Below are positions 7,384-54,996 of a DNA stretch of 64,000 nt, piece after piece. This DNA is from an uncultured Eubacteriales bacterium. GTDB taxonomy: Bacteria; Acidobacteriota; Aminicenantia; Aminicenantales; Aminicenantaceae. The stretch is from positions 22,888 to 86,887 of the forward strand of contig CAYTTR010000003.1 in NCBI GenBank assembly GCA_964440805.1, in the 5' to 3' direction. The notes below the pieces were generated by a model, which did no database searches, was not told where the DNA came from, and worked only from the letters and a program-made list of their open reading frames with translations. The position numbers were made by a program, and so were the translations under genes. How positions within the stretch are numbered: the first letter of the stretch is position 1; every line of letters begins with the position of its first letter.

Positions 7384-7546
7384 GAGAATTCATTCTATAA
7401 CAAATATGGGTACTACCGAAAACAGGGGATGTTAAATTTTAAAGAGTAAAGAGAAGTGTTGATATGTTTATCTATTTTCCAACTAATTTCCCATGGCCGC
7501 TTTGTCACCCTCGATGGATGAAAATTCTCCTTTGTCATTCCTTCAG

Positions 7547-7617
7547 ATGGCGGTTGCTTTTCTCGCCCGTCTCGCAATATCAAGTCCAGATAAACCGGGC
7601 AGACCAGATAGACTAAA
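7547..7617. repeat. composite intergenic repeat (GAG-box and 9-mer array, reverse orientation)
   Basis: cttttctcgcccgtctcgc plus ccagataaaccgggcagaccagatagactaaatagaccgaat; homologous to loci at 17231, 21231, 31870, 41981, 44015, 54691. Confidence 0.6.
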
Positions 7618-7647
7618 TAGACCGAATTGACGGAAAAGAAGAGAAGT

Positions 7648-7719
7648 GCGCCTGGCAGGATTCGAACCTGCGGCCTTCGGATCCGGAGTCCGACGCTCTA
7701 TCCCCTGAGCTACAGGCGC
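7648..7719 (-). tRNA. tRNA-Arg (anticodon CCG)
   Basis: reverse complement GCGCCTGTAGCTCAGGGGATAGAGCGTCGGACTCCGGATCCGAAGGCCGCAGGTTCGAATCCTGCCAGGCGCA folds as a cloverleaf; anticodon loop CTCCGGA; no encoded CCA. Confidence 0.85.
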
Positions 7720-11911: not shown

Positions 11912-11946
11912 AAGGGGACGTTCCCCAAGGTACCACCCCTTCCCAA
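11912..11946. repeat. palindromic repeat P variant (GGGGACGTTCCCC AAGGTACCACCCCTTCCC), plus orientation
   Basis: forms an inverted pair with the copy at 12328-12368. Confidence 0.6.
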
Positions 11947-12028
11947 GATCGAAATTAATATTCAATTTTGGTTTATTAAATTCACATGTTCTTTTCTATT
12001 TTTATTCAAGTAAGGTTGAAAAAATTAA

Positions 12029-12283
12029 GGGCATTAGATGTGCCTTCCGCTCTCCTTCGGCGCTTTTTCCGCCTTCTCTCACCGCTCTTCTCGGCAGCTG
12101 CGTAACTCCGCACCATTGTTCAATAAAAATCACTTTATTCTGTGTTCTGCGTTTATAATAGTCTAACCCATTTTTCCTGAGGCGTGCTCAATACATACTC
12201 GCTGTCCGACAAAGTCGGATTCCCCCGAATCGCAGTTCGAGAAGGCGTGCGCCTCAATGTCGCGGAAGGCACATTTAATGCCC
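12029..12283. mobile_element. TIR-bounded roughly 255-bp element (MITE-like or structured ncRNA), copy B, reverse orientation relative to copy A
   Basis: 22-bp terminal inverted repeats gggcattagatgtgccttccgc / gcggaaggcacatttaatgccc; core is homologous to 24183-24389 (blocks GCGACATTGAGGCGC, GGGAATCCGACTTTGTCGGA, GGAGTTACGCAGCTGCCGAGAAGAGCGGTGAGAGAA, GCGCCGAAG) and carries a roughly 60-nt AT-rich insertion. Confidence 0.55.
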
Positions 12284-12327
12284 TCCAAAAAAACATTTCT
12301 TACAAAAAGGTAAATAACGCCTCTCTT

Positions 12328-12368
12328 GGGGAAGGGGTGGTACCTTGGGGAACGTCCCCCCCTTTTTG
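12328..12368. repeat. palindromic repeat P variant, minus orientation (partner of 11912-11946)
   Basis: gggaaggggtggtaccttggggaacgtcccccccttttt. Confidence 0.6.
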
Positions 12369-12419
12369 ACTTTTCTAATTATACTGGATAACATGATGCC
12401 GCAAAGGAAAGGGGAAATA

Positions 12420-13520
12420 ATGAAAACCATTCTTGGCTCCAGACTTCGCCGGGCAAGGGAAGAACTGGGACTTTCTCAAGCTGATCTGGCAAGGAAAATC
12501 AAAATCTCCAACGAGCACATCTGGCACTTAGAACATGGAAAACGAAGCCCCAGTTTGGATGTTCTTACCCGTTTGGCAGAATTTTTCAAAAAAGATATTG
12601 GCTATTTTATAAAAGAAAAGGAGGCTTCTTTTCAACTGCTTTTCCAGGAAAAAACACTGGATAAAAAAACCAAATCTTATCTCCGGAAATTTAAAAAACA
12701 CTGCCAGGATTATTTGCTTCTGGAAGAGCTGACCGGGAACCGCTTGCCTAACGCCCCTCTTTACCATACTCCTGACCCGGAAAAAATGGCTATAGAAGAA
12801 AGACAGCGGCTTGGTTTGGGAAACCATCCGCTAAGAAATGTTTTTTTTCTACTGGAACAACAAAACTTTCATCTTATCCGGCAATGCCTGGGGACAGAAA
12901 GTCAAATAACGGGTATTTTCATTTATTTAAATGATGAAGATGAAGCCTTTGCTCTAATTAATGCTTCGCTATCAGAAGAAAAACAAACTCTGGCCGCAGT
13001 CCATCTCTATGGACATTTCCTCAAAGACCGTCTTGGAGGGCCAATTATTGATAATCCTGATGTTTTTATTGACGAATATCTTGAGCTCTATCATCCAAGA
13101 GAGAAATTCTCCCAGATTTTTACCTCCCGCTTCCTTCTCCCCCGGACATTTCTTAAGGATTTAATTTCCTCTTTCTCTAAGAAAAGTTTTCTGGACTTAG
13201 AAGTTATCCTTTATTTAAAACGTATCACTGGAGTGGAACAACAAGTACTGCTTTCTGCTCTCCAAGAAATGGAAGTATTGACCTCAACTCACGGTAAGGA
13301 TTTAAATAAACTCGATTTAAATAAAGAAGCTGAAAAATTTTTCTCAATTCCAGAGCGGACCGGGCATCCCAAATTGAGAAAAGGACAAATAATAATCTCT
13401 GACCGCTTCTATTTCCTGGCTTGTGGAGCCTTTAGAAAGAAAAAAATCACTCTTGAGGAAACAGCCCAGCTAACCGGGGTAGAGAAAAACAAGATTAGCA
13501 GCTTTTTCCGGAAAAAATAG
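12420..13520 (+). CDS. XRE-family HTH transcriptional regulator with a long (about 300 aa) C-terminal domain, possibly a degenerate ImmA/IrrE-like domain
   Basis: start ATG at 12420 preceded by aaaggaaagggg; HTH LGLSQADLARKIKISNEHIWHLEHGKRSPS; C-terminal HLYGH in place of HExxH; the ORF-track start at 12345 lies inside the repeat. Confidence 0.6.
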   Translation: MKTILGSRLRRAREELGLSQADLARKIKISNEHIWHLEHGKRSPSLDVLTRLAEFFKKDIGYFIKEKEASFQLLFQEKTLDKKTKSYLRKFKKHCQDYLLLEELTGNRLPNAPLYHTPDPEKMAIEERQRLGLGNHPLRNVFFLLEQQNFHLIRQCLGTESQITGIFIYLNDEDEAFALINASLSEEKQTLAAVHLYGHFLKDRLGGPIIDNPDVFIDEYLELYHPREKFSQIFTSRFLLPRTFLKDLISSFSKKSFLDLEVILYLKRITGVEQQVLLSALQEMEVLTSTHGKDLNKLDLNKEAEKFFSIPERTGHPKLRKGQIIISDRFYFLACGAFRKKKITLEETAQLTGVEKNKISSFFRKK

Positions 13521-17178: not shown

Positions 17179-17230
17179 TGAATCCATTTTTTAACATTTT
17201 TCACCTGACCGGTCAATACACAGAAAAAGA

Positions 17231-17366
17231 CTATTCAGTCTGTCTGGTCTATTTCGTCTATTCAGCCTATTCGGTGATTCAATTAAATCAATTGGGCGGG
17301 GCGAGATGAGCGAGAAAGGCGAGAAAAGTAAAAAGCGTTAGTTGCGTTTATTGCGTTAGTTGCGTG
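17231..17366. repeat. composite intergenic repeat (9-mer array, GAG-box GGGCGGGGCGAGATGAGCGAGAAAGGCGAGAAAAG, second array GCGTTAGTTGCGTTTATTGCG)
   Basis: homologous modules at 6 other loci. Confidence 0.6.
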
Positions 17367-20582: not shown

Positions 20583-21182
20583 GTGACAACTAAAGAGAGA
20601 GCAGCCAAAATAAAAAAATTTCTTTCCTTCCGTCAATCCGACCTCAGAGTTGTCCTGGAAGATGTAACCAACACCCATAACGCCAGCGCAGTGGTCAGAA
20701 CTTGTGATGCCGCCGCTATCCTATATCTGGACGTTATCTACAACCAGCCATTTGAGCTTCCGGTGAATGAAGCCATTTCCACCAGAGCAGAAAAATGGCT
20801 CCATTTCACTTACTACTCATCTACAGAAGAATGCTTCACTGCTCTCAAAGGCAAAGGATTTAAAATCGCAGCCACATCTCTTGCTCCTGAATCCCAACTT
20901 TATACTGAAATTGACTATACTCAACCCTTGGCTATAGTATTCGGAAATGAGGCCGAAGGCATCTCACCCAGAGCCAGGGCCCTGGCCGATTATTTAATCA
21001 TGATTCCCATGAAAGGCATGGTTCAAAGCCTTAACCTTTCGGTTTCAGCAGGAATTATTCTTTTTGAAGCCCTCAGGCAGCGGTCTATCTTTAGTGACCC
21101 CAAGAAACACTGCCTTCAACCCCAGGAATATGAATATTTTTTAAAAAAGTGGCTCTACCAAAAAAATTATAATAGTAAATAG
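20583..21182 (+). CDS. SpoU/TrmH family RNA 2'-O-methyltransferase (GTG start; the ORF track extends to 20472)
   Basis: VVLEDVTNTHNASAVVRTCDAAAI motif 1; LIMIPMKGMVQSLNLSVSAGIILFE motif 3. Confidence 0.7.
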   Translation: MTTKERAAKIKKFLSFRQSDLRVVLEDVTNTHNASAVVRTCDAAAILYLDVIYNQPFELPVNEAISTRAEKWLHFTYYSSTEECFTALKGKGFKIAATSLAPESQLYTEIDYTQPLAIVFGNEAEGISPRARALADYLIMIPMKGMVQSLNLSVSAGIILFEALRQRSIFSDPKKHCLQPQEYEYFLKKWLYQKNYNSK

Positions 21183-21230
21183 TAAATGGCAAATAGTAAA
21201 TTGATTGAACCATCTTGAAATATGTTGACT

Positions 21231-21318
21231 AAACAGACTGAACAAACCGAATAGACGAAATCAACACAACTAACGCTATAAACGCAATTAACGCAATTAA
21301 CGCTTCTCTCGTCTCGCC
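21231..21318. repeat. composite intergenic repeat (arrays and GAG-box, reverse orientation)
   Basis: aaacagactgaacaaaccgaatagacgaaa...aacgcaattaacgcaattaacgcttctctcgtctcgcc. Confidence 0.6.
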
Positions 21319-21352: not shown

Positions 21353-21388
21353 CCAGGGAAAAGGGTGTCCCTTTGGGGAACGTCCCTC
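21353..21388. repeat. palindromic repeat P copy (minus orientation) followed by a T-run; candidate bidirectional terminator between SpoU(+) and HtrA(-)
   Basis: ccagggaaaagggtgtccctttggggaacgtccctc then tttttat. Confidence 0.55.
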
Positions 21389-23096: not shown

Positions 23097-23492
23097 TTAA
23101 TATTTAACTGGTGTACCGGGACTATCAGAAACCTGCTCCAGAATATATATGGTCGGCGTTTTTTGTCTTTCTCTTCTGAATTCACCATTGTAGGTCACTT
23201 GCTCGGTAATAGGGAATACTCTTTCCCCGCTATATCTCACTTCCGGGTCAAACGGAATGTCAGCTTTTTTGGCATCCGCCTGATCTGTCAGGGGTTGATG
23301 AGGAATGATAAGGACTGAAATTATAAGAAAAGCCAGGATTATTGTCCCGGCGGCTCCAGCCAAAGAAAGCCCGAGAGTGCGGATTCTTTTCCTCTTTATC
23401 TTTCGTTCTATCAACATCCCCCCAACTTGACTCTCGAAATCCGGAGGAGCCTTTACTCGTTTCATACTTTTTAAAAGTTCAATCTCATCCAT
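23097..23492 (-). CDS. putative membrane-anchored anti-sigma factor
   Basis: 131 aa, single TM, overlaps the stop of the upstream ECF sigma gene by 8 nt; assigned by context only. Confidence 0.4.
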   Translation of the reverse strand: MDEIELLKSMKRVKAPPDFESQVGGMLIERKIKRKRIRTLGLSLAGAAGTIILAFLIISVLIIPHQPLTDQADAKKADIPFDPEVRYSGERVFPITEQVTYNGEFRRERQKTPTIYILEQVSDSPGTPVKY

Positions 23493-24105
23493 TTTCCCCT
23501 TCTCCTTCTTTAAAAAAATCCTCCTTATTAGAGAATTTCTCCAATTCTTTTCTTAAATAGTTTCTTCCCCGGCTGATACGGGCCTTGATTGTTCCTACCG
23601 GTACCTTCATAATTTGGGCGATTTCCTCCTGGGAAAAACCCTCCATATCCTTCAGAACAACCGGAATCCGGTAACGCGGGTGAAGGTTATTTAGGGCCCG
23701 GCGAAGAATTCTTATTGAATCTTTCTTTTCCGGTGAATCAAAGGAAGCCTCTTCCTCAATAAAAAAATCCTGTACCTCATCGAAAGAGACAGCAGACATT
23801 TTTCGCTTTTTTTTCAAATCGGTTTTGGCTAAGTTGGCGGCTATGGTGTAAATCCAGGAACTGAAAGGAGCAACCGGCTGGTACTGCTTGGCTTTGAAAT
23901 AAACTCTCATAAATGTCTCCTGGGCCAGCTCCACTGCTCTTTCATAATCCCCGGTGAGCTGCCAGATGAAATTGACCATCCTGTCTTTGTAGGCCCTGAC
24001 GATCTTTCCAAAAGCCGCTTCATCACCATCTTTAATCCGCTCCATCAGTTCTTGTTCATCCATCTCCAATTCCTTGTAACCTTTAAGTCCAGTTTTTCGT
24101 TGCAT
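23485..24105 (-). CDS. ECF-subfamily sigma-70 factor (sigmaE-like)
   Basis: region 2 ...FIWQLTGDYERAVELAQETFMRVY; region 4 HTH EEIAQIMKVPVGTIKARISRGR. Confidence 0.8.
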   Translation of the reverse strand: MQRKTGLKGYKELEMDEQELMERIKDGDEAAFGKIVRAYKDRMVNFIWQLTGDYERAVELAQETFMRVYFKAKQYQPVAPFSSWIYTIAANLAKTDLKKKRKMSAVSFDEVQDFFIEEEASFDSPEKKDSIRILRRALNNLHPRYRIPVVLKDMEGFSQEEIAQIMKVPVGTIKARISRGRNYLRKELEKFSNKEDFFKEGEGENG

Positions 24106-24182: not shown

Positions 24183-24389
24183 ACAATAAGAAATCATCAG
24201 ATATGCCCGGAGCGACATTGAGGCGCTAGTCTTCTCGAGCCGCTATTCGAGGGAATCTGATTTCGTCGGACGGCGAGTGCGCATTAAGCTGACGGAATGG
24301 AGTTACGCAGCCGCCGAGAAGAGCGGTGAGAGAATGGCGAAAAAAGCGCCGAAGTAAAGCGGAGGGCATACCTGATGATTTCTTATTGT
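24183..24389. mobile_element. TIR-bounded roughly 207-bp element (MITE-like or structured ncRNA), copy A
   Basis: 25-bp TIRs cacaataagaaatcatcagatatgccc / gggcatacctgatgatttcttattgt (1 mismatch); core homologous to 12029-12283 with compensatory stem changes. Confidence 0.55.
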
Positions 24390-31635: not shown

Positions 31636-31823
31636 AAAACTCCTCCCTGATAGATTTTATTTAAATTAAAAATAATCATAAAAAAGCCTTACTCTCTATA
31701 TTAAATATAACCTGGATTAAAGGATTTGGGAATTAGCTGATTCTGTTGAATGATTTTTTCATCCATACCCTGAAATTTGAGCTAATAATATTGGCATAAT
31801 TACAATTTGAAGTCAAGATATTT

Positions 31824-31860
31824 AAGGGGGACGCTCCCCAAAGGGACACCTCTTCCCCTG
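31824..31860. repeat. palindromic repeat P copy (plus orientation)
   Basis: aagggggacgctccccaaagggacacctcttcccctg. Confidence 0.6.
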
Positions 31861-31869
31861 AACAAATTA

Positions 31870-31985
31870 GTTTATTGCGTTTATTGCGTTTATTGCGTTT
31901 ATTGCGTTCATTTAGTTTGTCTGGTTTATCTGGTTTGTCTGGTTTATTTAGTTTAGAAGAAGGGTGAGGCGGGTGAGAAATGATT
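31870..31985. repeat. composite intergenic repeat: 4 x GCGTTTATT, then TAGTTTGTC/TGGTTTATC units, then GAG-like box
   Basis: gtttattgcgtttattgcgtttattgcgtttattgcgttcatttagtttgtctggtttatctggtttgtctggtttatttagttta gaagaagggtgaggcgggtgagaaa. Confidence 0.65.
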
Positions 31986-32109
31986 GTTGATGTTTAAGGG
32001 GGATTCTGTTTTGTTGACATAAGAATCTGTTGAATATAAATTTTGAGCGGATGTTCCCCATTCTGATGGAACTATTTTTTCCTGGATTTCGTCTTTAGGA
32101 ATGTGAGAA

Positions 32110-32670
32110 GTGGAAATAGAAGAAACCATAAAAAAATGCCTGAACGGAGACCAAGGAGCCTGGAAAATGATCGTTAATGCCTATTCCCAGAAGATATTCA
32201 GCATGTCCTACCAGTTCACCGGTTCACACCAAGAAGCCGAAGACCTTACCCAGGAAATATTTTTCAAACTCTACTCTTCTTTGAAAAAATATGATTTCCG
32301 CAAAAATTTCTCAGCCTGGCTCCTGACTCTGGCCAAAAATTACCTCATCGACAATTACCGCCGGACAAAATGGGAGAAGAAAAACCGGGATGAGCTCGAT
32401 GAGCGTTTCTTTGAGTCAGCAGAAAGCGAAAAGCCGGAACATAAACTTGAACAACAGGAAACTCAGAAGACGATCTGGAAAGGACTCAATCAGCTTTCCC
32501 CGGATATCCGGCTGGCACTCATCCTTTTTGATATTCAGGGCAAAACCTATGAAGAAACAGCCGAAATCCTGGCTGTCCCGGTTGGCACAATCAAATCCCG
32601 CATTAACCGGGGACGCCTGCAATTGGCCCAGATTTTAAGGGGAACAAGGGAGGTTTGCCATGACTTGTAA
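32110..32670 (+). CDS. ECF-subfamily sigma-70 factor (GTG start)
   Basis: region 2 AEDLTQEIFFKLY; region 4 EETAEILAVPVGTIKSRINRGR. Confidence 0.75.
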   Translation: MEIEETIKKCLNGDQGAWKMIVNAYSQKIFSMSYQFTGSHQEAEDLTQEIFFKLYSSLKKYDFRKNFSAWLLTLAKNYLIDNYRRTKWEKKNRDELDERFFESAESEKPEHKLEQQETQKTIWKGLNQLSPDIRLALILFDIQGKTYEETAEILAVPVGTIKSRINRGRLQLAQILRGTREVCHDL

Positions 32671-33910: not shown

Positions 33911-35262
33911 GAGCCCGAGAAGTAATTCTGCTAGCCTTGCTTCTTGCCGGGGGCATTCTGTTTACCCAAATTTATACCGGCAAACTGGATGTAAGCTGGG
34001 GATTTGACGAATTTCCCTTCTGGCACCTTAAAGAGTTCGAATTCGAGGAAAGAGAAATCATCTCACCTCCTCTACCTCCTGAATTGGAATTATTAAACGC
34101 TCACGGCGAGGTGGAGATTGAAGGCACGGATGATGAACAAATCAATATCATCTTTCTTAAAAAGTTCCGGAGAAAAAATCAAGATGAGGCCGCGGCTGAG
34201 GCTGCCGGCCTCCGCCTATTCGCAAGCAAGAGCAAAGAACGCCTGAAGCTTTCCAGCAACAGGGATGAAGTAAGAAAAAAGAACCTGAAGACCTGCTTCA
34301 AAATCCAAGTCCCTTCATCAATGAAGATCAAAGTGGAAAACTCTTATGGCCTGGTCATGGTGCAAAATGTCCGCGATACAGAAATCAGCAACCCTTACGG
34401 CAAAACAATAGTCTCAGACATTAATGGAACTCTGAACCTAACCAATAAATACAAGAATGTAGAAGTCACCGGAGTTTCTTCTTCATGTCAGATAGAAAGC
34501 CATTACTCAAAGGTTTACCTGAAGGATGTAGCGGGAGAAACAAACATCAGTCATTCCTATGGAACCTTGAACCTGGAAAATCTTTCTGCCGGATTGACAC
34601 TCCAAGGAAGACACAGTGTGGTGGAAGGTTTTAAACTTACCGGTCCAAACCAGATTGAAACAACTTATAAAAAAATCCGCCTTGTTGAAATAGGCCCGAC
34701 AAAACTAATTACTCATAATTCCCCGGTTGAAGTTATTCAAGCCGATGGAGATATTTTTATCGAAAACAGCTACGACAGAGTAAGTCTAAAAAAAATAAGG
34801 GGAAATTTAACCGTCAAAGGAAAATACCTTCGGCTCTCCGGTGCTAATATCAGAGGAGATTTCCTGGATATATCATCATCATACAGGGAAATTGAGCTTT
34901 CCCGCTTCTCTGGACAAACAAAAATTCTTCTTTCTCATGGTGATCTCATTCTTGTTCCTGACTCATTAACTGCTCCCCTTGAAATCAATGGAGATTATGT
35001 CAATATCAGCCTGACCTGGCCGGCCGGAGGAAGATATCCTTTGGAAATCCATAACAAAGGGGGAGAAACCAACTGGTTGCTAAAAGAAAAGGCTTCCTTT
35101 GAAACCTTAAATAACACAACTACCCTCAAAGCCTTCAGTCAGGAAAAAACCCAGCCCTCAATATCCATCTCCACCACCTACGGAACCGTTACTATAAGAG
35201 AAGGGGACGTTCCCCAAAGGGACACCCTTTCCCCTGAAGGAAATAGCTTATCGCTTTATTGA
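33907..35262 (+). CDS. DUF4097-type putative adhesin / beta-helical repeat protein with N-terminal TM (YvlB-like)
   Basis: repeated N-x-Y/G-x-I/V-x-V beta-strand units; start ATG at 33907 overlaps the previous stop; the last 13 codons are encoded by repeat P. Confidence 0.5.
   Translation: MRAREVILLALLLAGGILFTQIYTGKLDVSWGFDEFPFWHLKEFEFEEREIISPPLPPELELLNAHGEVEIEGTDDEQINIIFLKKFRRKNQDEAAAEAAGLRLFASKSKERLKLSSNRDEVRKKNLKTCFKIQVPSSMKIKVENSYGLVMVQNVRDTEISNPYGKTIVSDINGTLNLTNKYKNVEVTGVSSSCQIESHYSKVYLKDVAGETNISHSYGTLNLENLSAGLTLQGRHSVVEGFKLTGPNQIETTYKKIRLVEIGPTKLITHNSPVEVIQADGDIFIENSYDRVSLKKIRGNLTVKGKYLRLSGANIRGDFLDISSSYREIELSRFSGQTKILLSHGDLILVPDSLTAPLEINGDYVNISLTWPAGGRYPLEIHNKGGETNWLLKEKASFETLNNTTTLKAFSQEKTQPSISISTTYGTVTIREGDVPQRDTLSPEGNSLSLY
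35200..35240. repeat. palindromic repeat P, best full copy (plus orientation), embedded in the 3' end of the DUF4097 CDS
   Basis: gaaggggacgttccccaaagggacaccctttcccctgaagg. Confidence 0.65.
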
Positions 35263-35854
35263 GTTTCTTTGGTTGATTTAGTTCATTACATTTAGGGCAA
35301 TCATTTACGAGGAGCAGAGTGAAAGTTCTAAGTGGTCCCAACATACTACAAAGCACTTTGTTAAACACCTTGAGAGCCTCGGTTTTAAAGTAAATCTAGA
35401 ACCGATTTCTCTAGCTGCATGAGTTTCATGTTCTTATTTTCAAGCTAATGGTATGATAAAGTCTCAATTATTTCGGTCAATATTGAAAATTTTCCACCAT
35501 TTCAATCTTATTTTTTAAAACGTGATAAAATTAACCTTTCCCTAAAGGTCAACGTATTTTGTTTATTATCAACAGATTTCTTTATTTCCTTTATTATCAA
35601 TTAGTTACAAAAAAGACCGAATCTTGTGCAATCTGCCATATCTCTCAGATTTTACTTAAAGTTAGGGTCCAAAAACTTGGATTTATCCACAAGTTTTCCA
35701 CATTTTTTGTGAATAACTCTGAACATCACTTTTCTTCTCTTTTTCAGGTTCTCCCCTCTGATAAAAGCTTCCCTTTCCCGTCTATATATTTACTCTTTTG
35801 CCTGCATTTTCACAAAAAAAATATCTGTAGACAAAATGTTTCTTTCTGTTCCTC

Positions 35855-37934: not shown

Positions 37935-37974
37935 AGAAGGGACGTTCCCCAAAAGGACACCCTTTTCCCTGGAC
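37935..37974. repeat. palindromic repeat P copy (plus orientation)
   Basis: gagaagggacgttccccaaaaggacacccttttccctggac. Confidence 0.6.
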
Positions 37975-38321
37975 AAATAAACTCTTATTCTTTTCTATTA
38001 GCCTGGATTATTCACGAGTCGAGGTTGCCGTAGGGGTTAGGCTGGGTCGGGGCGAGGCATAAGACACACAGCTTTGATCTCTCCACCGCAAGTACCCTGT
38101 AATAAAACAGATGCGGCAAGATCGACTCTCGCCCAGAGGGTAAAAAAGGCCGATTTTAGATAAGCTTTAATGGCAGAATTTAATAAACTTACTTTTTTTA
38201 TGTAGCCTGAGAGAAAATCTTTTAAGTCATACATAGTATTTGTAATAATTTAAGTACTGGACTTTCTATGAATAGTTCAGGTTAGTAGCATTAAAATAAA
38301 ATTGAAAAATTATTATCACCT

Positions 38322-38355
38322 CTGGAAAGGGTATCCCTTTGGGGAATGCTCCCTT
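38322..38355. repeat. degenerate palindromic repeat P copy (minus orientation), partner of 37935-37974
   Basis: ctggaaagggtatccctttggggaatgctccctt. Confidence 0.5.
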
Positions 38356-38505: not shown

Positions 38506-38880
38506 TCATTTCCTGCTCATAAGCTTTTTAAGCCAGGATAAAATGAAATGTGAATTGGTACTTCTTTCAATGTCTTCCCGTGAAAGATCCTTAATTTTTT
38601 GAAAAAATTCTTTGTTTTTCTGGTTGCGTAAACTGACTGTTCCGGCAATTTTTTCAGCTAATTCCGGATTCCGATTGAGGACATTGGCAAAAGTTAGAGC
38701 ATCGATTTTCAAGAGTACGCTTTCTTCCATAGTTTTTACAGTTGCAGTCCTGGGCATTCCGGAAAAAAGAGACATCTCACCAAAAAGTCCTCCTGGCCCA
38801 ATAGTAAACTCTGATACATAATTCTTTCCAGCTTCCAAATAATGAATTTCGCCCTTAATAAAGCTGATTTTTTTCATCAA
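38506..38880 (-). CDS. cyclic-nucleotide-binding (CAP effector) domain protein, apparently N-terminally short
   Basis: FGEMSLFSGMPRTATVKTMEESVLLKI phosphate-binding cassette motif. Confidence 0.55.
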   Translation of the reverse strand: MMKKISFIKGEIHYLEAGKNYVSEFTIGPGGLFGEMSLFSGMPRTATVKTMEESVLLKIDALTFANVLNRNPELAEKIAGTVSLRNQKNKEFFQKIKDLSREDIERSTNSHFILSWLKKLMSRK

Positions 38881-41903: not shown

Positions 41904-41980
41904 TGATTTTATGATTTAATCTTAGAGAAATCCCCTTTTTTGGTCAACTATTCTCATCCATCATTTCTTAAAACCAAGCA

Positions 41981-42222
41981 GTTCGAAGTCTGTTCAGTCT
42001 ATTCGGTTTATCTCGTTTATTTAGTTTGTTTGGTTTATTTAGTTGAAAAAAAAGACGGGATGAGTGATAAGGGCGAGAGGATCGAGGCGGAAAGAAATAG
42101 CTTGTTGCGTTTATCTGGTTTGTCTGGTATAAATGATTTGAAAAAGCCGGGGCGGGGCGAGATGAGTGAGGCCTAATAAGCTACATAAACGACATAAACA
42201 AGATAAACAATAAAATGGGCGA
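41981..42222. repeat. composite intergenic repeat (two arrays, two GAG-boxes, reverse array)
   Basis: agtctgttcagtctattcggtttatctcgtttatttagtttgtttggtttatttag...gggcgagaggatcgaggcgg...gcgtttatctggtttgtctgg...ggggcggggcgagatgagtgagg...cataaacgacataaacaagataaacaa. Confidence 0.6.
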
Positions 42223-42357: not shown

Positions 42358-44007
42358 GTGCAATTCATCAAAGTCTTGTTTAATTCTATTGTAAGTGGAT
42401 TTTTCTTCTGTTGGCTCTTATCCACCCTGATAATCGATCTTAATTTTCATCTTCCCTTCAGCTTTTTCTGTCAGTTAAATCTTACTGTATTTCTTACGGT
42501 TACCTATGGCCTTTTAATTACGCTGGTAAGCTTACTGAGTTTTTATTTGTTTCAATTCTTTAGAGGGAAAAAAATAACTCTCGCTTTAATTTCTCCAGCA
42601 TTTCTAATGATCAATTTCACTTTAGTCCTAATATTATTTCTTTATATAAAGAAAGTTAATATAGATTTTTTCAGGTCATTCTTTCTTCCTCAGAATCTTT
42701 CCCTTGTTAGAAGCCAAACAACCATCTACATCGCCTTGGTATTGATCGGAATTCTCTGCTTGTACTTTTTTCTACGACTGGGAAAAAACATAATTTTCAC
42801 TTCAGCCTATTTCCTTTGCTTGTTTACAGGACTGTTCATAGTAACCCACCAGAGAAATAAATTCGTTTCTCCTAATCCTCCGGAAACAACTCCTTATCTT
42901 GAACCAAAAAACATCGAACGCAGGATTACTGCCATCGGACTTGAGGGTTTGTCATTTGATTTTCTCATTCCGCTTATCAATCAAAACAAACTGCCTAATT
43001 ATGCCTGGCTTATGGAGGAAGGAAGCTGGGGAAGACTGTCGACTTTTACTCCTAATGAAGCCTTCATTTTAAATAATTCTTTTTCGTCGGGAAAACTCCC
43101 TTCTAAGCACCATGGAATTTCCTACTTCAAATACTATATTCCAACCCTGGAACAGGAAATTTATGCTGTTCCCCGGTTTATATTTTTTAGACAGCTAACC
43201 CGTTTGGGGCTTCTTGTTCCTTCACCGAATCCTTTGGATTCTGTTGCCGTTGATCTTTGTAGTATAATCAAATTCAATAAAGGTCTTGCTATCCGGCGAG
43301 ATTGGCCTTATGGATTTCAAGTATTAAATCCCCAGGAGGAGACAAGAAAAAATTTCGAACGTTTCTTCAGCGAACTTCAATTTGATGAAAATTCTATTGT
43401 TTCTACTCTCAGACAGTCTTTTTACATAGATACAGAATTCGAAAAGAAAGCCTTCCAGGAAAAGACCTTACGCCAGCCTCATCTCTTTTCCCTTCTTCTA
43501 AACGGATTGAATATCGTGGAAGCATATTTTTATAAGTTCAGTTCTCCGGAATATTTTGGAGAAGTCTCTCATGAAGATATAAATAAATATCAAAGCGTCA
43601 TCGAAACTTATTACAAATTCTATGATCAGATAATCGGAAAATATTTAGCTTCACTAAAAGATAATGAACTCCTGCTGGTCTATTCTCCACATGGAATGGA
43701 ACCTCTTCCCATTTGGAAAAGAGTTGTCGAATGGGGCTTGGGAAATTCAGATATAACGGCTTCTCACGAATGGGCTCCGGATGGGGTTGTCTTTTTTTTC
43801 GGAAAAGATGTGAACAAAGGAAAGAATATTGAGGAGACCAACATTCTTGACCTTGCTCCAACCTTACTTTACTACCTGGGCTTACCTGTGGCCAAGGACA
43901 TGGACGGAATAGTCCTGAGTTCAATCTTTATTAGGAGTTTTACTTCGGAAAATCCAGTCTTTTATATAAGTTCTTATCAGAATGTTATCGAGAGTAAGAA
44001 AGAATAA
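42358..44007 (+). CDS. membrane-anchored alkaline-phosphatase-superfamily enzyme (type I phosphodiesterase / nucleotide pyrophosphatase-like)
   Basis: about 6 N-terminal TM helices; TFTPNEAFILNNSFSSGKLPSKHHGI resembles the NPP TFPNHYSIVTGLYPESHGI motif; VYSPHGME and DLAPTLLYYLGLP C-terminal motifs. Confidence 0.6.
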   Translation: MQFIKVLFNSIVSGFFFCWLLSTLIIDLNFHLPFSFFCQLNLTVFLTVTYGLLITLVSLLSFYLFQFFRGKKITLALISPAFLMINFTLVLILFLYIKKVNIDFFRSFFLPQNLSLVRSQTTIYIALVLIGILCLYFFLRLGKNIIFTSAYFLCLFTGLFIVTHQRNKFVSPNPPETTPYLEPKNIERRITAIGLEGLSFDFLIPLINQNKLPNYAWLMEEGSWGRLSTFTPNEAFILNNSFSSGKLPSKHHGISYFKYYIPTLEQEIYAVPRFIFFRQLTRLGLLVPSPNPLDSVAVDLCSIIKFNKGLAIRRDWPYGFQVLNPQEETRKNFERFFSELQFDENSIVSTLRQSFYIDTEFEKKAFQEKTLRQPHLFSLLLNGLNIVEAYFYKFSSPEYFGEVSHEDINKYQSVIETYYKFYDQIIGKYLASLKDNELLLVYSPHGMEPLPIWKRVVEWGLGNSDITASHEWAPDGVVFFFGKDVNKGKNIEETNILDLAPTLLYYLGLPVAKDMDGIVLSSIFIRSFTSENPVFYISSYQNVIESKKE

Positions 44008-44014
44008 TAGAAAT

Positions 44015-44196
44015 CGTCTATTCAGTTAAAACAAAATAAGTGAGTGAAACGAACAAAATTAATAGAAAGGGTTGATTGCGTTTATAGAGTTTATTGCGTT
44101 TGTTGCGTTGACTGTTTTCGTAATTAAGAAATTAATTAACCATGACCGACTTAAAACTGCGATAAACACAATAAACGCAATCAACTACTGGTTGCG
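44015..44196. repeat. composite intergenic repeat (array plus inverted array)
   Basis: cgtctattcagtt...ttgattgcgtttatagagtttattgcgtttgttgcgttgactg...gataaacacaataaacgcaatcaac. Confidence 0.5.
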
Positions 44197-50566: not shown

Positions 50567-51346
50567 ATGGCTGAAAAAACAAAGCCTAAAAAAAAGAATG
50601 AAATTCCTGATATTTTTGAAGACTCCTTTTTCATTTCAGAAAAAGGAGGTGCCCGGAGAGCCTTAGCTTTTCCCATTGCCCTCCTTCTTCATGCGACTCT
50701 TGTTGCTGCCATGATTGTTATTCCTCTTCTCAACACCACCAACCTTCCCCAAGTCGAAGTCTACAGCGCCTTTCTCGCCCCTCCTCCACCACCTCCCCCC
50801 CCACCACCTCCTCCGGCCAAGAAAAAAGCCAGATCTGAGACCAGAACCCGAATTAAACCTGTCCAAGCTCAGTCAACTATTCAACCCGGCCAATTAGTAG
50901 CACCGGTGGACATTCCAGAAGAAATTGCCGAAGAAGAACTTTCCGATATTGGCATTGAAGGCGGAGTTGAAGGCGGAGTTGAGGGCGGAGTGGTTGGTGG
51001 AGTTCTTGGTGGAGTAGTCGGCGGAGTCCTGGGTGGAGTGGTTGGTGAAGTTGAAGAAGCTCCTGTCAGAGCTGTTGGTGAGATAAAACCGCCTAAACTT
51101 ATTAAAAAGGTAGAACCAACTTACCCCGAAATCGCCCGCCAGGCACGGGTAGAAGGTGTGGTTATTCTGGAATGTATTACTGACATTTATGGACGAGTTC
51201 AGAATGTCAAGGTTCTTCGCTCCATTCCTCTTCTGGAACAGGCTGCCATTGATGCAGTTCGACAGTGGGTTTATGAGCCGATGATTATCAACGGTCGTCC
51301 CAGGGGAGTTATTTTTACTGTTACTGTTATCTTTAAATTGAAATAG
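50567..51346 (+). CDS. tonB: TonB-family energy transducer
   Basis: N-terminal TM, poly-Pro run, Gly-Gly-Val repeats, C-terminal TonB_C. Confidence 0.75.
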   Translation: MAEKTKPKKKNEIPDIFEDSFFISEKGGARRALAFPIALLLHATLVAAMIVIPLLNTTNLPQVEVYSAFLAPPPPPPPPPPPPAKKKARSETRTRIKPVQAQSTIQPGQLVAPVDIPEEIAEEELSDIGIEGGVEGGVEGGVVGGVLGGVVGGVLGGVVGEVEEAPVRAVGEIKPPKLIKKVEPTYPEIARQARVEGVVILECITDIYGRVQNVKVLRSIPLLEQAAIDAVRQWVYEPMIINGRPRGVIFTVTVIFKLK

Positions 51347-54633: not shown

Positions 54634-54690
54634 AGAACTTATTTTATGAGAAATCAGAGTTTTTAGTCCACCCTATAAAACGGTTTTTTT

Positions 54691-54822
54691 CGTTTATTTA
54701 GTTTATTTCGTTTATTTAGCTTGAAAATACGGAATCCGGTCTGTTCAATCTATTCGGTTAAGTCAACTTATTCTTTAAGTTTAGATTGTGTGAGAAGGGC
54801 GAGACGAGCGAGAAAAGCAGCC
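54691..54822. repeat. composite intergenic repeat (array CGTTTATTTAGTTTATTTCGTTTATTTAG, GGTCTGTTCAATCTATTCGGTT, GAG-box GAGAAGGGCGAGACGAGCGAGAAAAGC)
   Basis: homologous modules at 6 other loci. Confidence 0.6.
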
Positions 54823-54996
54823 GGTATCCGCAGAAATGATAAAGGTACATTTTCATCCATAGCAGGTGGCAAGGCCGCCATGAGAAACCCATTTCTATTT
54901 AAGGCCGATATACCCTCTGGACTTGAGAGCATCAGATTTCTGAGACACCCCGGTCTTTACTCATTCATTTAATTTTGTTATTTTTGGCTGAAAGAA

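Follow-up and report, generated by a model that had tools for sequence, protein, structure and literature searches.

A tandem array of short units at positions 31870-31985, between an HMG-CoA synthase operon and a divergent ECF sigma gene, raises the question of whether such arrays are sites read by a host regulator, RNA structures, neutral expansions or copies of a dispersed repeat family. The array is part of 64 kilobases (kb) of DNA from an uncultured Eubacteriales bacterium (GTDB family Aminicenantaceae, Acidobacteriota; assembly GCA_964440805.1, contig CAYTTR010000003.1, positions 22,888 to 86,887). This stretch is called the window in the following, and all island counts refer to these 64 kb of the source genome. 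Repeat islands had been predicted at seven loci of the window, and all seven were found to carry head-to-tail units of nine nucleotides (nt); an eighth island was added. With a confidence that roughly balances our doubt, we read the islands as a lineage-amplified, non-coding, mosaic and dispersed family of STRR/BIME/MITE-like character that gains and loses units, and not as a conserved regulatory system.

A single 9-nt unit in eight intergenic islands

The tandem 9-mer islands are genuine, as confirmed by the excess of period 9, by a shuffle test and by the concentration of the core heptamer in the gaps between genes. A self-match scan (36-nt windows, at least 24 matches, periods 5-15) returned 197 windows at period 9 and 0-12 at the other periods, except for period 12 (70). 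The period-12 signal is explained by the sole period-12 tandem array called by Tandem Repeats Finder (TRF), which sits within the open reading frame (ORF) 50567-51346, and outside coding sequence the window has no tandem period other than 9. The three-unit pattern GTYTATYNNGTYTATYNNGTYTRTY occurs 5 times in the window and 0 times in 100 dinucleotide shuffles, and 35 of the 106 GTYTRTY heptamers are concentrated in island DNA, which makes up 1.9% of the window. ORFs cover about 90% of the sequence; every island lies outside credible ORFs, and together they fill 8 of the 20 gaps of at least 80 nt. TRF called period-9 arrays at six of the seven predicted loci (17335-17365, 21227-21303, 31870-31955 with 9.6 copies, 42006-42044, 42109-42128, 42183-42210, 44071-44109, 44162-44185 and 54683-54719), the seventh (7547-7617) being found by the self-match scan together with an array search. 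The latter also revealed the degenerate eighth island at 35254-35289.

Phasing of 71 units from all islands resulted in the logo G T Y T R T Y N N, with G1 at 92%, T2 at 89%, Y3 at 94%, T4 at 76%, R5 at 92%, T6 at 85% and Y7 at 86%, and with positions 8-9 near-random. The information content amounts to 1.7, 1.2, 0.8, 0.7, 0.7, 1.0 and 0.5 bits at positions 1-7 and to 0.2-0.3 bits at positions 8-9. Arrays contain 3-10 copies, head-to-tail. Units vary mostly at positions 8-9 and by transitions at positions 3, 5 and 7. Signs of whole-unit change are the four perfect copies in island 4 and super-periods of 18 and 27 nt. On the plus strand of island 4, the four perfect GTTTATTGC are followed by GTTCATTTA, GTTTGTCTG, GTTTATCTG, GTTTGTCTG, GTTTATTTA and GTTTAGAAG, and after the array by the tail GGGTGAGGC GGGTGAGAA. 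According to the logo the 9-mer itself is non-palindromic, and the hairpin-forming component is a separate sequence only, the P element described below. The conservation of the unit position by position argues that something reads each 9-base-pair (bp) unit, and judged from this pattern its sequence-specific recognition is likely.

The original prediction distinguished two kinds of array and a purine box as separate modules. All of these are present, but the arrays do not represent separate kinds. NNGTTTATY, GTCTRTTC and the GCGTTWRTT array are a single unit in different variants and registers, and the purine box is likewise 9-nt periodic (G-Y-G-A-G-R-N-N-N), with GCGAGA/GTGAGR starts 9 nt apart in five islands (17301/17310/17319, 54790/54799/54808, 31964/31973, 42157/42166 and 7566/7575). 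This purine-rich partner array is read as a decayed, transition-rich inverted arm. The predicted variation in module order and orientation was borne out, as the modules recur in differing arrangement across islands. Module and purine box of island 1 are 80% identical over 89 nt to 54799-54887 in island 7, and the shared stretch precedes unrelated genes (GNAT versus phosphorylase).

Turnover in relatives and P-bounded elements

The islands were compared with L119/L120, a relative with 93% amino acid (aa) identity in the HMG-CoA synthase (HMGCS), and with L269/L270, contigs from the same samples that are syntenic with the window at 37.8-54.3 kb. The arrays of L119 and L120, two samples of one relative, are identical. 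The ECF sigma/HMGCS spacer has the P element and the two promoter-like regions in L119 as well; about 4 degenerate units are found there versus about 10 in the window, together with heptamer-like TACTATT units. At the position of island 8, L119 carries a P element, GTTTATCGC GTTTATTGC GTTTGTCGC (gtttatcgc gtttattgc gtttgtcgc) and a purine box. Islands 4 and 8 are therefore retained in position, with unit number and sequence changed. Islands 5 and 6 are missing from L269, where the flanks align well around shorter unrelated sequence and both the flanking gene ends and promoter-like sequence are kept; across 21.5 kb of syntenic L269 sequence no 9-mer array was found. The original prediction regarded positional conservation in related genomes as decisive for its own view, and the outcome is divided, with two islands in place and two not. 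The combination of purine box, GTAAAAA and GCGTT array known from island 2 reappears in L119 at a non-orthologous locus, and one L119 array ends 12 nt 5' of a TTGACA.

The array density drops with phylogenetic distance from the window over L119 and L121-L123 to distant Aminicenantes. L119 has 3 arrays in 17 kb versus 8 islands in the 64-kb window, L121-L123 have no array of at least 3 units, the ECF sigma/HMGCS spacer is without array in L121 and in a relative at 85% HMGCS identity, and the distant Aminicenantes (24 metagenome loci, 32-63% PfkB identity) have 1 clear array in 251 kb. By the comparisons with L119, L269 and the distant relatives, the islands are lineage-specific, labile and partly dispensable.

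Part of the islands is linked to the P element (GGGGACGTTCCCCAAAGGGACACCCTTTCCCCTG), which occurs seven times in the window. Inverted P pairs delimit two elements, 11914-12359 (446 nt) and 37938-38355 (418 nt), and the arms at 11914/12329 are 31 nt long and 100% complementary. In L269 the TPR gene/tRNA-Arg spacer lacks the element 37938-38355 and so represents an empty site; a homologue of the element's interior (73% over 234 nt) is located elsewhere in L119. This L119 copy is about 105 nt longer between the P arm and the conserved core, and this part contains an array and a purine box followed by another array. Arrays are placed on one side of P only, with a single polarity (31826, 35203, 21386 and both L119 copies). 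The contig of a 99%-identical strain terminates inside a P element, as expected because P is a multi-copy repeat. Inspection by eye of the bases outside the P ends revealed no consistent target-site duplication. On these sequence data, the P-bounded elements of about 420-450 nt seem to be MITE-like and mobile.

Further observations concern the interior of these elements. The core 38005-38290, which corresponds to L119 4667-4897 (about 73% over 234 nt), is non-coding and includes CTCTCCACCGCAAG..CCTGTAAT..GGCCGATTT; neither a credible ORF nor an Rfam match was found in it, a TTGACA precedes the L119 copy, and the core could be an unclassified small RNA gene. A sequence of about 250 nt is present twice in the window (12032-12280 and, inverted, 24183-24389) and also in L119 (17218-17394). 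The copies have the same orientation to the downstream gene, being located 5' of an HTH_3 regulator (12345-13520) and of the second ECF sigma factor (23485-24105). The 24.2-kb copy has 45-nt inverted arms of its own and is conserved in L119 at the corresponding position, and the 12-kb copy lies within a P-bounded element.

Genomic setting and look-alike arrays in other phyla

The HMG-CoA synthase of the window is 100% identical to a protein on an NCBI contig of 119 kb, and proteins named Candidatus Aminicenantes follow as the next hits, in line with a Candidatus Aminicenantes genome as the source. The gene content of the window is that of an ordinary chromosome, including EF-G, SecDF, YajC, the HMG-CoA synthase operon, two ECF sigma factors, RecD2 and three tRNAs. 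Islands 2, 4, 5 and 7 are found in divergent intergenic regions, islands 3, 6 and 8 at convergent gene ends and island 1 between a co-directional tRNA-Arg and GNAT gene. As predicted, islands lie beside P elements (three islands) and tRNA genes (two). Their neighbours are functionally unrelated (GNAT, PfkB kinase, ECF sigma, phosphodiesterase, signal peptidase, phosphorylase). Island 4 is located exactly between the -35-like hexamers of two outward-facing promoter-like sites at 31816 (-) and 32014 (+), and the SAM hydroxide adenosyltransferase gene has a -35-like hexamer at 41947, with island 5 beginning upstream of it at a distance given as 34 or 41 nt. The coordinates of all features are compiled in the table.

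Table. Components of the repeat islands and adjoining repeats, in order of position in the window
Feature	Position	Strand	Sequence or setting
Island 1, module of about 70 nt common to island 7	7487..7556	-	
Island 1, purine (R-type) box	7557..7575	-	gcgagacgg gcgagaaaag
Island 1, T-type array	7587..7631	-	gtcaattcg gtctattta gtctatctg gtctgcccg gtttatctg; starts 15 nt 3' of tRNA-Arg (7646-7719, -)
Island 2, T-type array	17229..17273	+	GTCTATT variant, 5 units; 50 nt upstream of tRNA-Leu 5' end (tRNA on opposite strand)
Island 2, purine box	17294..17328	+	GGGCGGGGCGAGATGAGCGAGAAAGGCGAGAAAAG, with three GCGAGA starts
Island 2, GCGTTAGTT/GCGTTTATT array	17335..17366	+	9-mer unit in other register
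Heptamer array adjoining island 3	21171..21201	.	AATAGTA x4.4 (TRF)
Island 3, T-type array	21230..21301	-	8 units; between convergent SpoU methylase (+) and PDZ protease (-)
Island 3, purine box	21303..21318	-	ggcgagacgagagaag
P element adjoining island 3	21354..21386	-	
P element	31826..31860	+	GGGGGACGCTCCCCAAAGGGACACCTCTTCCCCTG; directly 5' of island 4 array
Island 4 (flagged locus), array	31870..31955	+	4 perfect and then 5-6 degenerate units; 18-nt super-period in degenerate part
Island 4, purine box	31962..31979	+	gggtgaggc gggtgagaa
P element before island 8	35203..35236	+	
Island 8 (new), degenerate T-type array	35254..35289	+	ctttattga gtttctttg gttgattta gttcattac
Island 5, T-type array	41988..42044	+	6 units
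Island 5, purine box a	42054..42094	+	
Island 5, second T-type array	42100..42127	+	
Island 5, purine box b	42149..42171	+	GGGGCGGGGCGAGATGAGTGAGG
Island 5, inverted T-type array	42173..42208	-	
Island 6, left arm of palindromic array element	44071..44112	+	between convergent gene ends
Island 6, right inverted arm	44159..44187	-	
Island 7, T-type array	54683..54718	+	4 units, 18-nt super-period
Island 7, GTCTGTTCAATCTATTCGGTT units	54739..54759	+	
Island 7, purine box	54790..54817	+	gtgagaagg gcgagacga gcgagaaaag
Island 7, module of about 70 nt common to island 1	54818..54887	+	

Several features of the neighbouring genes were observed in addition. A GGAAC-N17-CGTCT at 32068-32094, just 5' of the ECF sigma gene (32110-32670), is kept in L119; by its sequence it looks like an autoregulatory ECF-type promoter distinct from the sigma-70-like site at 32014. 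The phosphodiesterase gene (42358-44007) has an uncertain start, with 466 aa in the public annotation of an identical protein, 503 aa in a relative and 549 aa for the ORF, and a conserved TTGACC...TAATTT promoter-like stretch lies within the first 60 codons of the 549-aa ORF. The ORF 50567-51346 carries an in-frame 12/24/36-nt repeat (GGCGGAGTTGAA-type) at 50955-51054, encoding a Gly/Val-rich repeat in a protein of 259 aa, and the L269 orthologue of this protein has no Pfam hit on record. From tRNA-Arg to RecD2, about 6 kb of genes in L269 (504-6442) stand opposite to 38506-38880 in the window; these encode a mechanosensitive channel with cNMP-binding domain, a metallo-beta-lactamase fold protein, a CHASE2-adenylate/guanylate cyclase, an M48 peptidase and an SH3 protein. 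The 124-aa cNMP-binding fragment of the window (38506-38880) is probably a deletion remnant.

Similar arrays were found outside the Aminicenantes. An exact-pattern scan, with one genome per species, returned at least 118 loci. Among the 118 matches listed, 58 belong to Nitrospirota or Desulfobacterota/Myxococcota ('delta') and 10 to Acidobacteriota; arrays of the degenerate type (4 or more units, 60% or more distinct) are present at 27 of 29 Nitrospirota, 23 of 29 'delta' and 5 of 10 Acidobacteriota loci, 114 of 155 arrays lie outside long ORFs, and for 40 of 147 an inverted array is found no more than 120 nt away. Four Nitrospira genomes have in common a palindromic element of about 170 nt, composed of array, loop, inverted array and GC-rich ends. 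Close alignment of the element itself, together with flanks that fail to align at all, is what marks a dispersed or mobile element. A purine-rich tract following the arrays showed no general enrichment in the other phyla. In a scan of viral contigs the search pattern matched mostly near-perfect AT-rich tandem repeats, and these matches were taken as background. Directly after the 9-mer arrays of L018, L068, L036, L095, L100 (Syntrophaceae) and L011, hairpins of a G-run and a C-run (CCCCCTTT...AAAGGGGG) were observed, a combination that resembles the array and P element of the window, so that the association seems to recur in another phylum.

The same loci (L001-L118) also contain intergenic heptamer arrays with diverse units such as AGCCAAC, CTGTAGC, GGCTGTC and TGAATCT (e.g., L036, L014, L015, L117, L118). 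Among the matches listed there are 111 arrays of period 7/14/21 versus 78 unseeded arrays of period 9/18/27. In Desulfobacteraceae SURF_4 (L041, 880-7700), 11 9-mer arrays lie in 8 kb inside a sugar-biosynthesis operon, where they bracket MNT/HEPN toxin-antitoxin pairs and a gene for a four-helix-bundle 'S23p' protein. A repeated 70-nt promoter-like segment is located between paired arrays of this locus, and the arrays reach start codons without Shine-Dalgarno sequence, their in-frame reading resulting in spurious N-P-T-N-S-T peptide repeats. The four-helix-bundle or '23S rRNA intervening sequence' (S23p) family is the only recurrent array neighbour among the matches listed (5 of 118 loci), and in three loci the array abuts the gene (L021 1087-1673, L025 7162-7653, L041 5986-6568). 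In Coxiella the S23p ORF was reported to be preceded by tandem heptamers (GACAGAT) of strain-variable number (PMC4990558). The S23p neighbourhood is a lead and not a result.

Known repeat families and rival explanations

We give about the same weight, neither for nor against, to the view that the family is of one kind with STRR, the heptamer arrays of Xanthomonas and Nostoc, the paired repeats of Geobacter metallireducens and the BIME/MITE elements. Cyanobacterial STRR (short tandemly repeated repetitive) sequences and the GGGAATC and GGGGAYT heptamer arrays of Xanthomonas and Nostoc consist of few-copy, head-to-tail short units at many intergenic loci, are lineage-specific and have no known function (PMC2670836; PMC4692102). 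The GGGAATC arrays are 89-93% intergenic, lie near where the upstream ORF ends and are present either alone or in inverted pairs that can form hairpins, and reports of 6-9-nt repeats were called rare (PMC4692102). In analogy, the islands of the window are head-to-tail, intergenic at multiple loci, lineage-specific and single or in inverted pairs (islands 5 and 6), and the loci of other phyla with 9-mer arrays carry many heptamer arrays, too. However, the unit of the window has 9 nt instead of 7 and is T-rich instead of G-rich, and therefore has no G-quadruplex potential; its arrays are more degenerate and are joined with a purine-rich partner and with P hairpins. In G. metallireducens, 'putative global regulator binding sites' of classes 1-3 (GTTGCTYN x4, TCTCCGTS[Y] x3 and MTYCTGA x5) were described as species-specific and absent from the sister species, IHF/HU binding was proposed without test, and some of the sites have an insertion sequence (IS) at a fixed distance (PMC2700814). 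These repeats have units of 7-9 nt in 3-5 copies, mostly as opposite-strand pairs at variable distance and at dozens of intergenic loci, which the window arrays resemble; in contrast, the unit sequences differ, the second arm is purine-rich and degenerate instead of a clean inverted copy, and no IS element lies beside the islands.

To REP/BIME of enterobacteria and pseudomonads and to REPINs (PMC2817692; PMC3116915) the islands are similar in being mosaics of modules in varying order and orientation, in following gene ends or lying between convergent genes, in being capable of hairpin formation and in a within-genome evolution as selfish DNA. REP is a single 20-40-nt palindrome mobilised by RAYT (Y1) transposases, in contrast to the tandem non-palindromic 9-mer of the window, for which no RAYT was found among 30 ORFs of these 64 kb (Pfam). 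The P-bounded elements resemble MITEs and foldback elements by their inverted ends and their size, one of them having an empty site and a copy elsewhere, and island 6 and the Nitrospira element are similar to foldback elements as palindromes with arms of tandem short units. Unlike in MITEs and foldback elements, no target-site duplication or autonomous partner was found, and most islands are without inverted ends. A literature search with the array sequence strings and the 9-nt repeat type found no paper with these array sequences in the library searched. Within a known kind of repeat whose mechanism is unsolved, the family stands apart by the length and sequence of its unit, by its purine-rich partners and by its connection with P-ended elements.

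If the islands are such a dispersed family, copies would be seeded in permissive intergenic DNA, namely in divergent promoter spacers, at convergent gene ends, in tRNA flanks and on the inner side of P ends, by a trans-acting enzyme or by inter-copy recombination. Seeded arrays would grow and shrink via replication slippage or unequal exchange, and G1, T2, T4 and T6 would be held by a protein reading each 9-bp unit, either the enzyme that mobilises the arrays or a DNA-binding protein of high abundance. For the host, the consequences would be mostly neutral; as an exception, the long two-arm hairpin of island 6 could act as bidirectional terminator or RNA stabiliser. Several points weigh against this account. 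Neither the window (Pfam, 30 ORFs) nor the intervals between the widely spaced inverted arrays of two other loci yielded a transposase, RAYT or integrase. For none of the array islands was a target-site duplication, a clean empty site or an insertion junction detected, and in the relative islands 5 and 6 are replaced by unrelated filler and not precisely excised. The persistence of islands 4 and 8 in the relative fits selection there as well. Copy number is known from 64 kb of the source genome only. Furthermore, the similarity of the arrays across phyla may be convergence rather than common descent, because the search pattern also matches many plain AT-rich tandem repeats. Terminal inverted repeats are present in the P-bounded elements and island 6, but not in islands 1-4, 7 and 8. 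An autonomous transposon between the distant inverted arrays of L081 and L091 was ruled out, as these enclose housekeeping genes only.

A more far-reaching reading, which we consider unlikely, is that the unit G-T-Y-T-R-T-Y-N-N is the iterated site of one dedicated, putative protein family common to Nitrospirota, Desulfobacterota, Acidobacteriota/Aminicenantes and neighbouring phyla. Equally unlikely as part of it, this protein would be a recombinase/transposase or a filament-forming DNA binder that spreads and coats the arrays, and, with the same low expectation, it would delimit small mobile cassettes in some genomes, such as those with MNT/HEPN and S23p genes (L041, L021, L025).

That the units are instead iterated sites of a putative host protein, either an IHF/HU-like nucleoid protein or a ribbon-helix-helix (RHH)-type repressor, which organises or regulates nearby promoters, is possible but rather improbable in our view. 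Of the original proposal of iterated protein-binding sites, one part stands, as the unit is conserved in the way that sequence-specific recognition would give; iterons and a response- or global-regulator regulon found no support. Four of the eight islands lie in divergent promoter regions just 5' of -35-like hexamers, one L119 array ends shortly 5' of a TTGACA, islands 4 and 8 hold their position, and a like proposal exists for the species-specific paired tandem repeats of Geobacter (PMC2700814). A regulator of this kind is difficult to reconcile with the unrelated neighbouring genes, three islands at convergent gene ends, units that vary in number and sequence between relatives, the dispensability of islands 5 and 6 beside retained gene ends and promoter-like sequence and the nearly array-free genomes of other Aminicenantes; no candidate protein was identified. 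With a period of 9 bp, moreover, neighbouring sites are offset by about 51 degrees around the helix, in contrast to the 10-11-bp spacing of response-regulator repeats. RHH repressors bind cooperatively to tandem short operators such as the omega heptads of pSM19035 and the 8-bp metboxes of MetJ, and these operators overlap the promoters of a defined regulon and are conserved together with the repressor gene. The islands are similar to them in their contiguous 7-9-bp units, direct or inverted, and in a sub-helical period compatible with a protein spiral around the DNA, but they neither overlap promoters of a defined regulon nor have a co-conserved repressor gene. Operator arrays of a response-regulator or RHH regulon found no support, in view of the loss of islands 5 and 6 next to conserved promoter-like sequence, the array-free ECF sigma/HMGCS spacer of L121, the location of arrays 5' of -35-like hexamers and the unrelated neighbours, to which the three convergent islands and the single array in 251 kb of relatives at 45-61% PfkB identity add. 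Replication iterons are 17-22-bp direct repeats confined to one locus, with an origin or rep gene beside them; here, 9-nt units occur at eight loci in 64 kb, no rep gene is present, and the cumulative GC skew is monotonic without a switch, so the window is not an origin. CRISPR was excluded, in agreement with the original prediction, by contiguous 9-nt units without spacers, CRISPR arrays having repeats of about 23-50 nt and unique spacers.

RNA hairpins, in which U-rich arrays would pair with purine boxes or inverted arrays and serve in termination, in the stabilisation of 3' ends, as RNase III sites or as intercistronic elements, roles that have been proposed for REP/STRR, represent a decidedly unlikely explanation. 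The whole element of island 6 (44066-44192) folds with z = -6.1 on the plus and -4.5 on the minus strand, and its inverted arms are clean and those of island 5 weaker. On the T-rich strand z is lower than on the opposite strand in 8 of 8 islands, mostly not significantly, with -2.65 for island 2 and -2.05 for island 5; folding beyond shuffles is limited to islands 6, 2 and 5, and |z| stays below 1.3 on the T-rich strand in 5 of 8 islands. In the predicted T-rich-strand helices, T-units pair with purine-box units with 17-43% G.U pairs, so that pairing works on one strand only, but a decaying palindrome explains the high G.U share equally well. The Nitrospira palindromic arrays, among the matches listed, mostly begin 4-20 nt past a stop codon, and arrays extend to start codons in the Desulfobacteraceae operon. 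On the other side, islands 4 and 5 are flanked by promoter-like hexamers that face outward, and island 7 lies between divergent genes, because of which these three are probably outside the flanking transcripts, and Rfam 15, at gathering and E<=1 thresholds, matched only tRNAs in the window and no family in 16 array-bearing loci. Replication-strand deamination was rejected as sole cause of the T-rich/purine-rich asymmetry, as islands 1 and 3 are oppositely oriented.

A neutral micro- or minisatellite-like expansion of AT-rich intergenic DNA, without recognition or mobility, would account for the fast turnover among relatives, for the perfect copies and the 18/27-nt super-periods typical of slippage and for the frequency of plain GTTTATYNN tandem repeats in AT-rich viral contigs. 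This reading is already weakened by the data and very unlikely, since period 9 stands alone in the non-coding DNA of the window, one core recurs independently at 8 loci, variation is confined mainly to positions 8-9 and to transitions at 3, 5 and 7, homology runs past the arrays into non-repetitive modules, and the arrays are linked in a polar manner to one P-element side. Contingency (phase-variable) promoter spacers, whose unit number would tune divergent promoters as in the heptamer repeats upstream of the H. influenzae hmw genes, are the most far-fetched of the explanations considered. Island 4 would suit them with its four perfect 9-nt copies between two promoter-like sites and a unit number unlike that of the relative. 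All other arrays are degenerate and for this reason poor slippage substrates, the arrays lie 5' of the -35-like hexamers and not within the -35/-10 interval, the L119 and L120 arrays are identical in two samples, and the organism belongs to a free-living sediment lineage with housekeeping genes adjacent to the islands.

With the mosaic dispersed family as the favoured reading, the window contributes a 9-nt family from an uncultured phylum to the short intergenic tandem-repeat elements, for which, to our knowledge, decades of cataloguing have yielded no mechanism. The relatives add how such arrays behave: they are intergenic, keep a 7-base core, change by whole units, are gained and lost beside stable promoter-like sequence and travel with hairpin-ended elements. 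In practice, such repeats disrupt short-read assemblies and can be mistaken for regulatory motifs or for coding three-residue repeats (spurious ORFs of the N-P-T-N-S-T type). The Nitrospira look-alikes, including those of the cultured N. moscoviensis, bring the question within experimental reach. We know of no explanation for STRR-like bacterial repeats since 1990, and the shared-protein reading, if true, would provide the first mechanistic handle on these repeats as a class.

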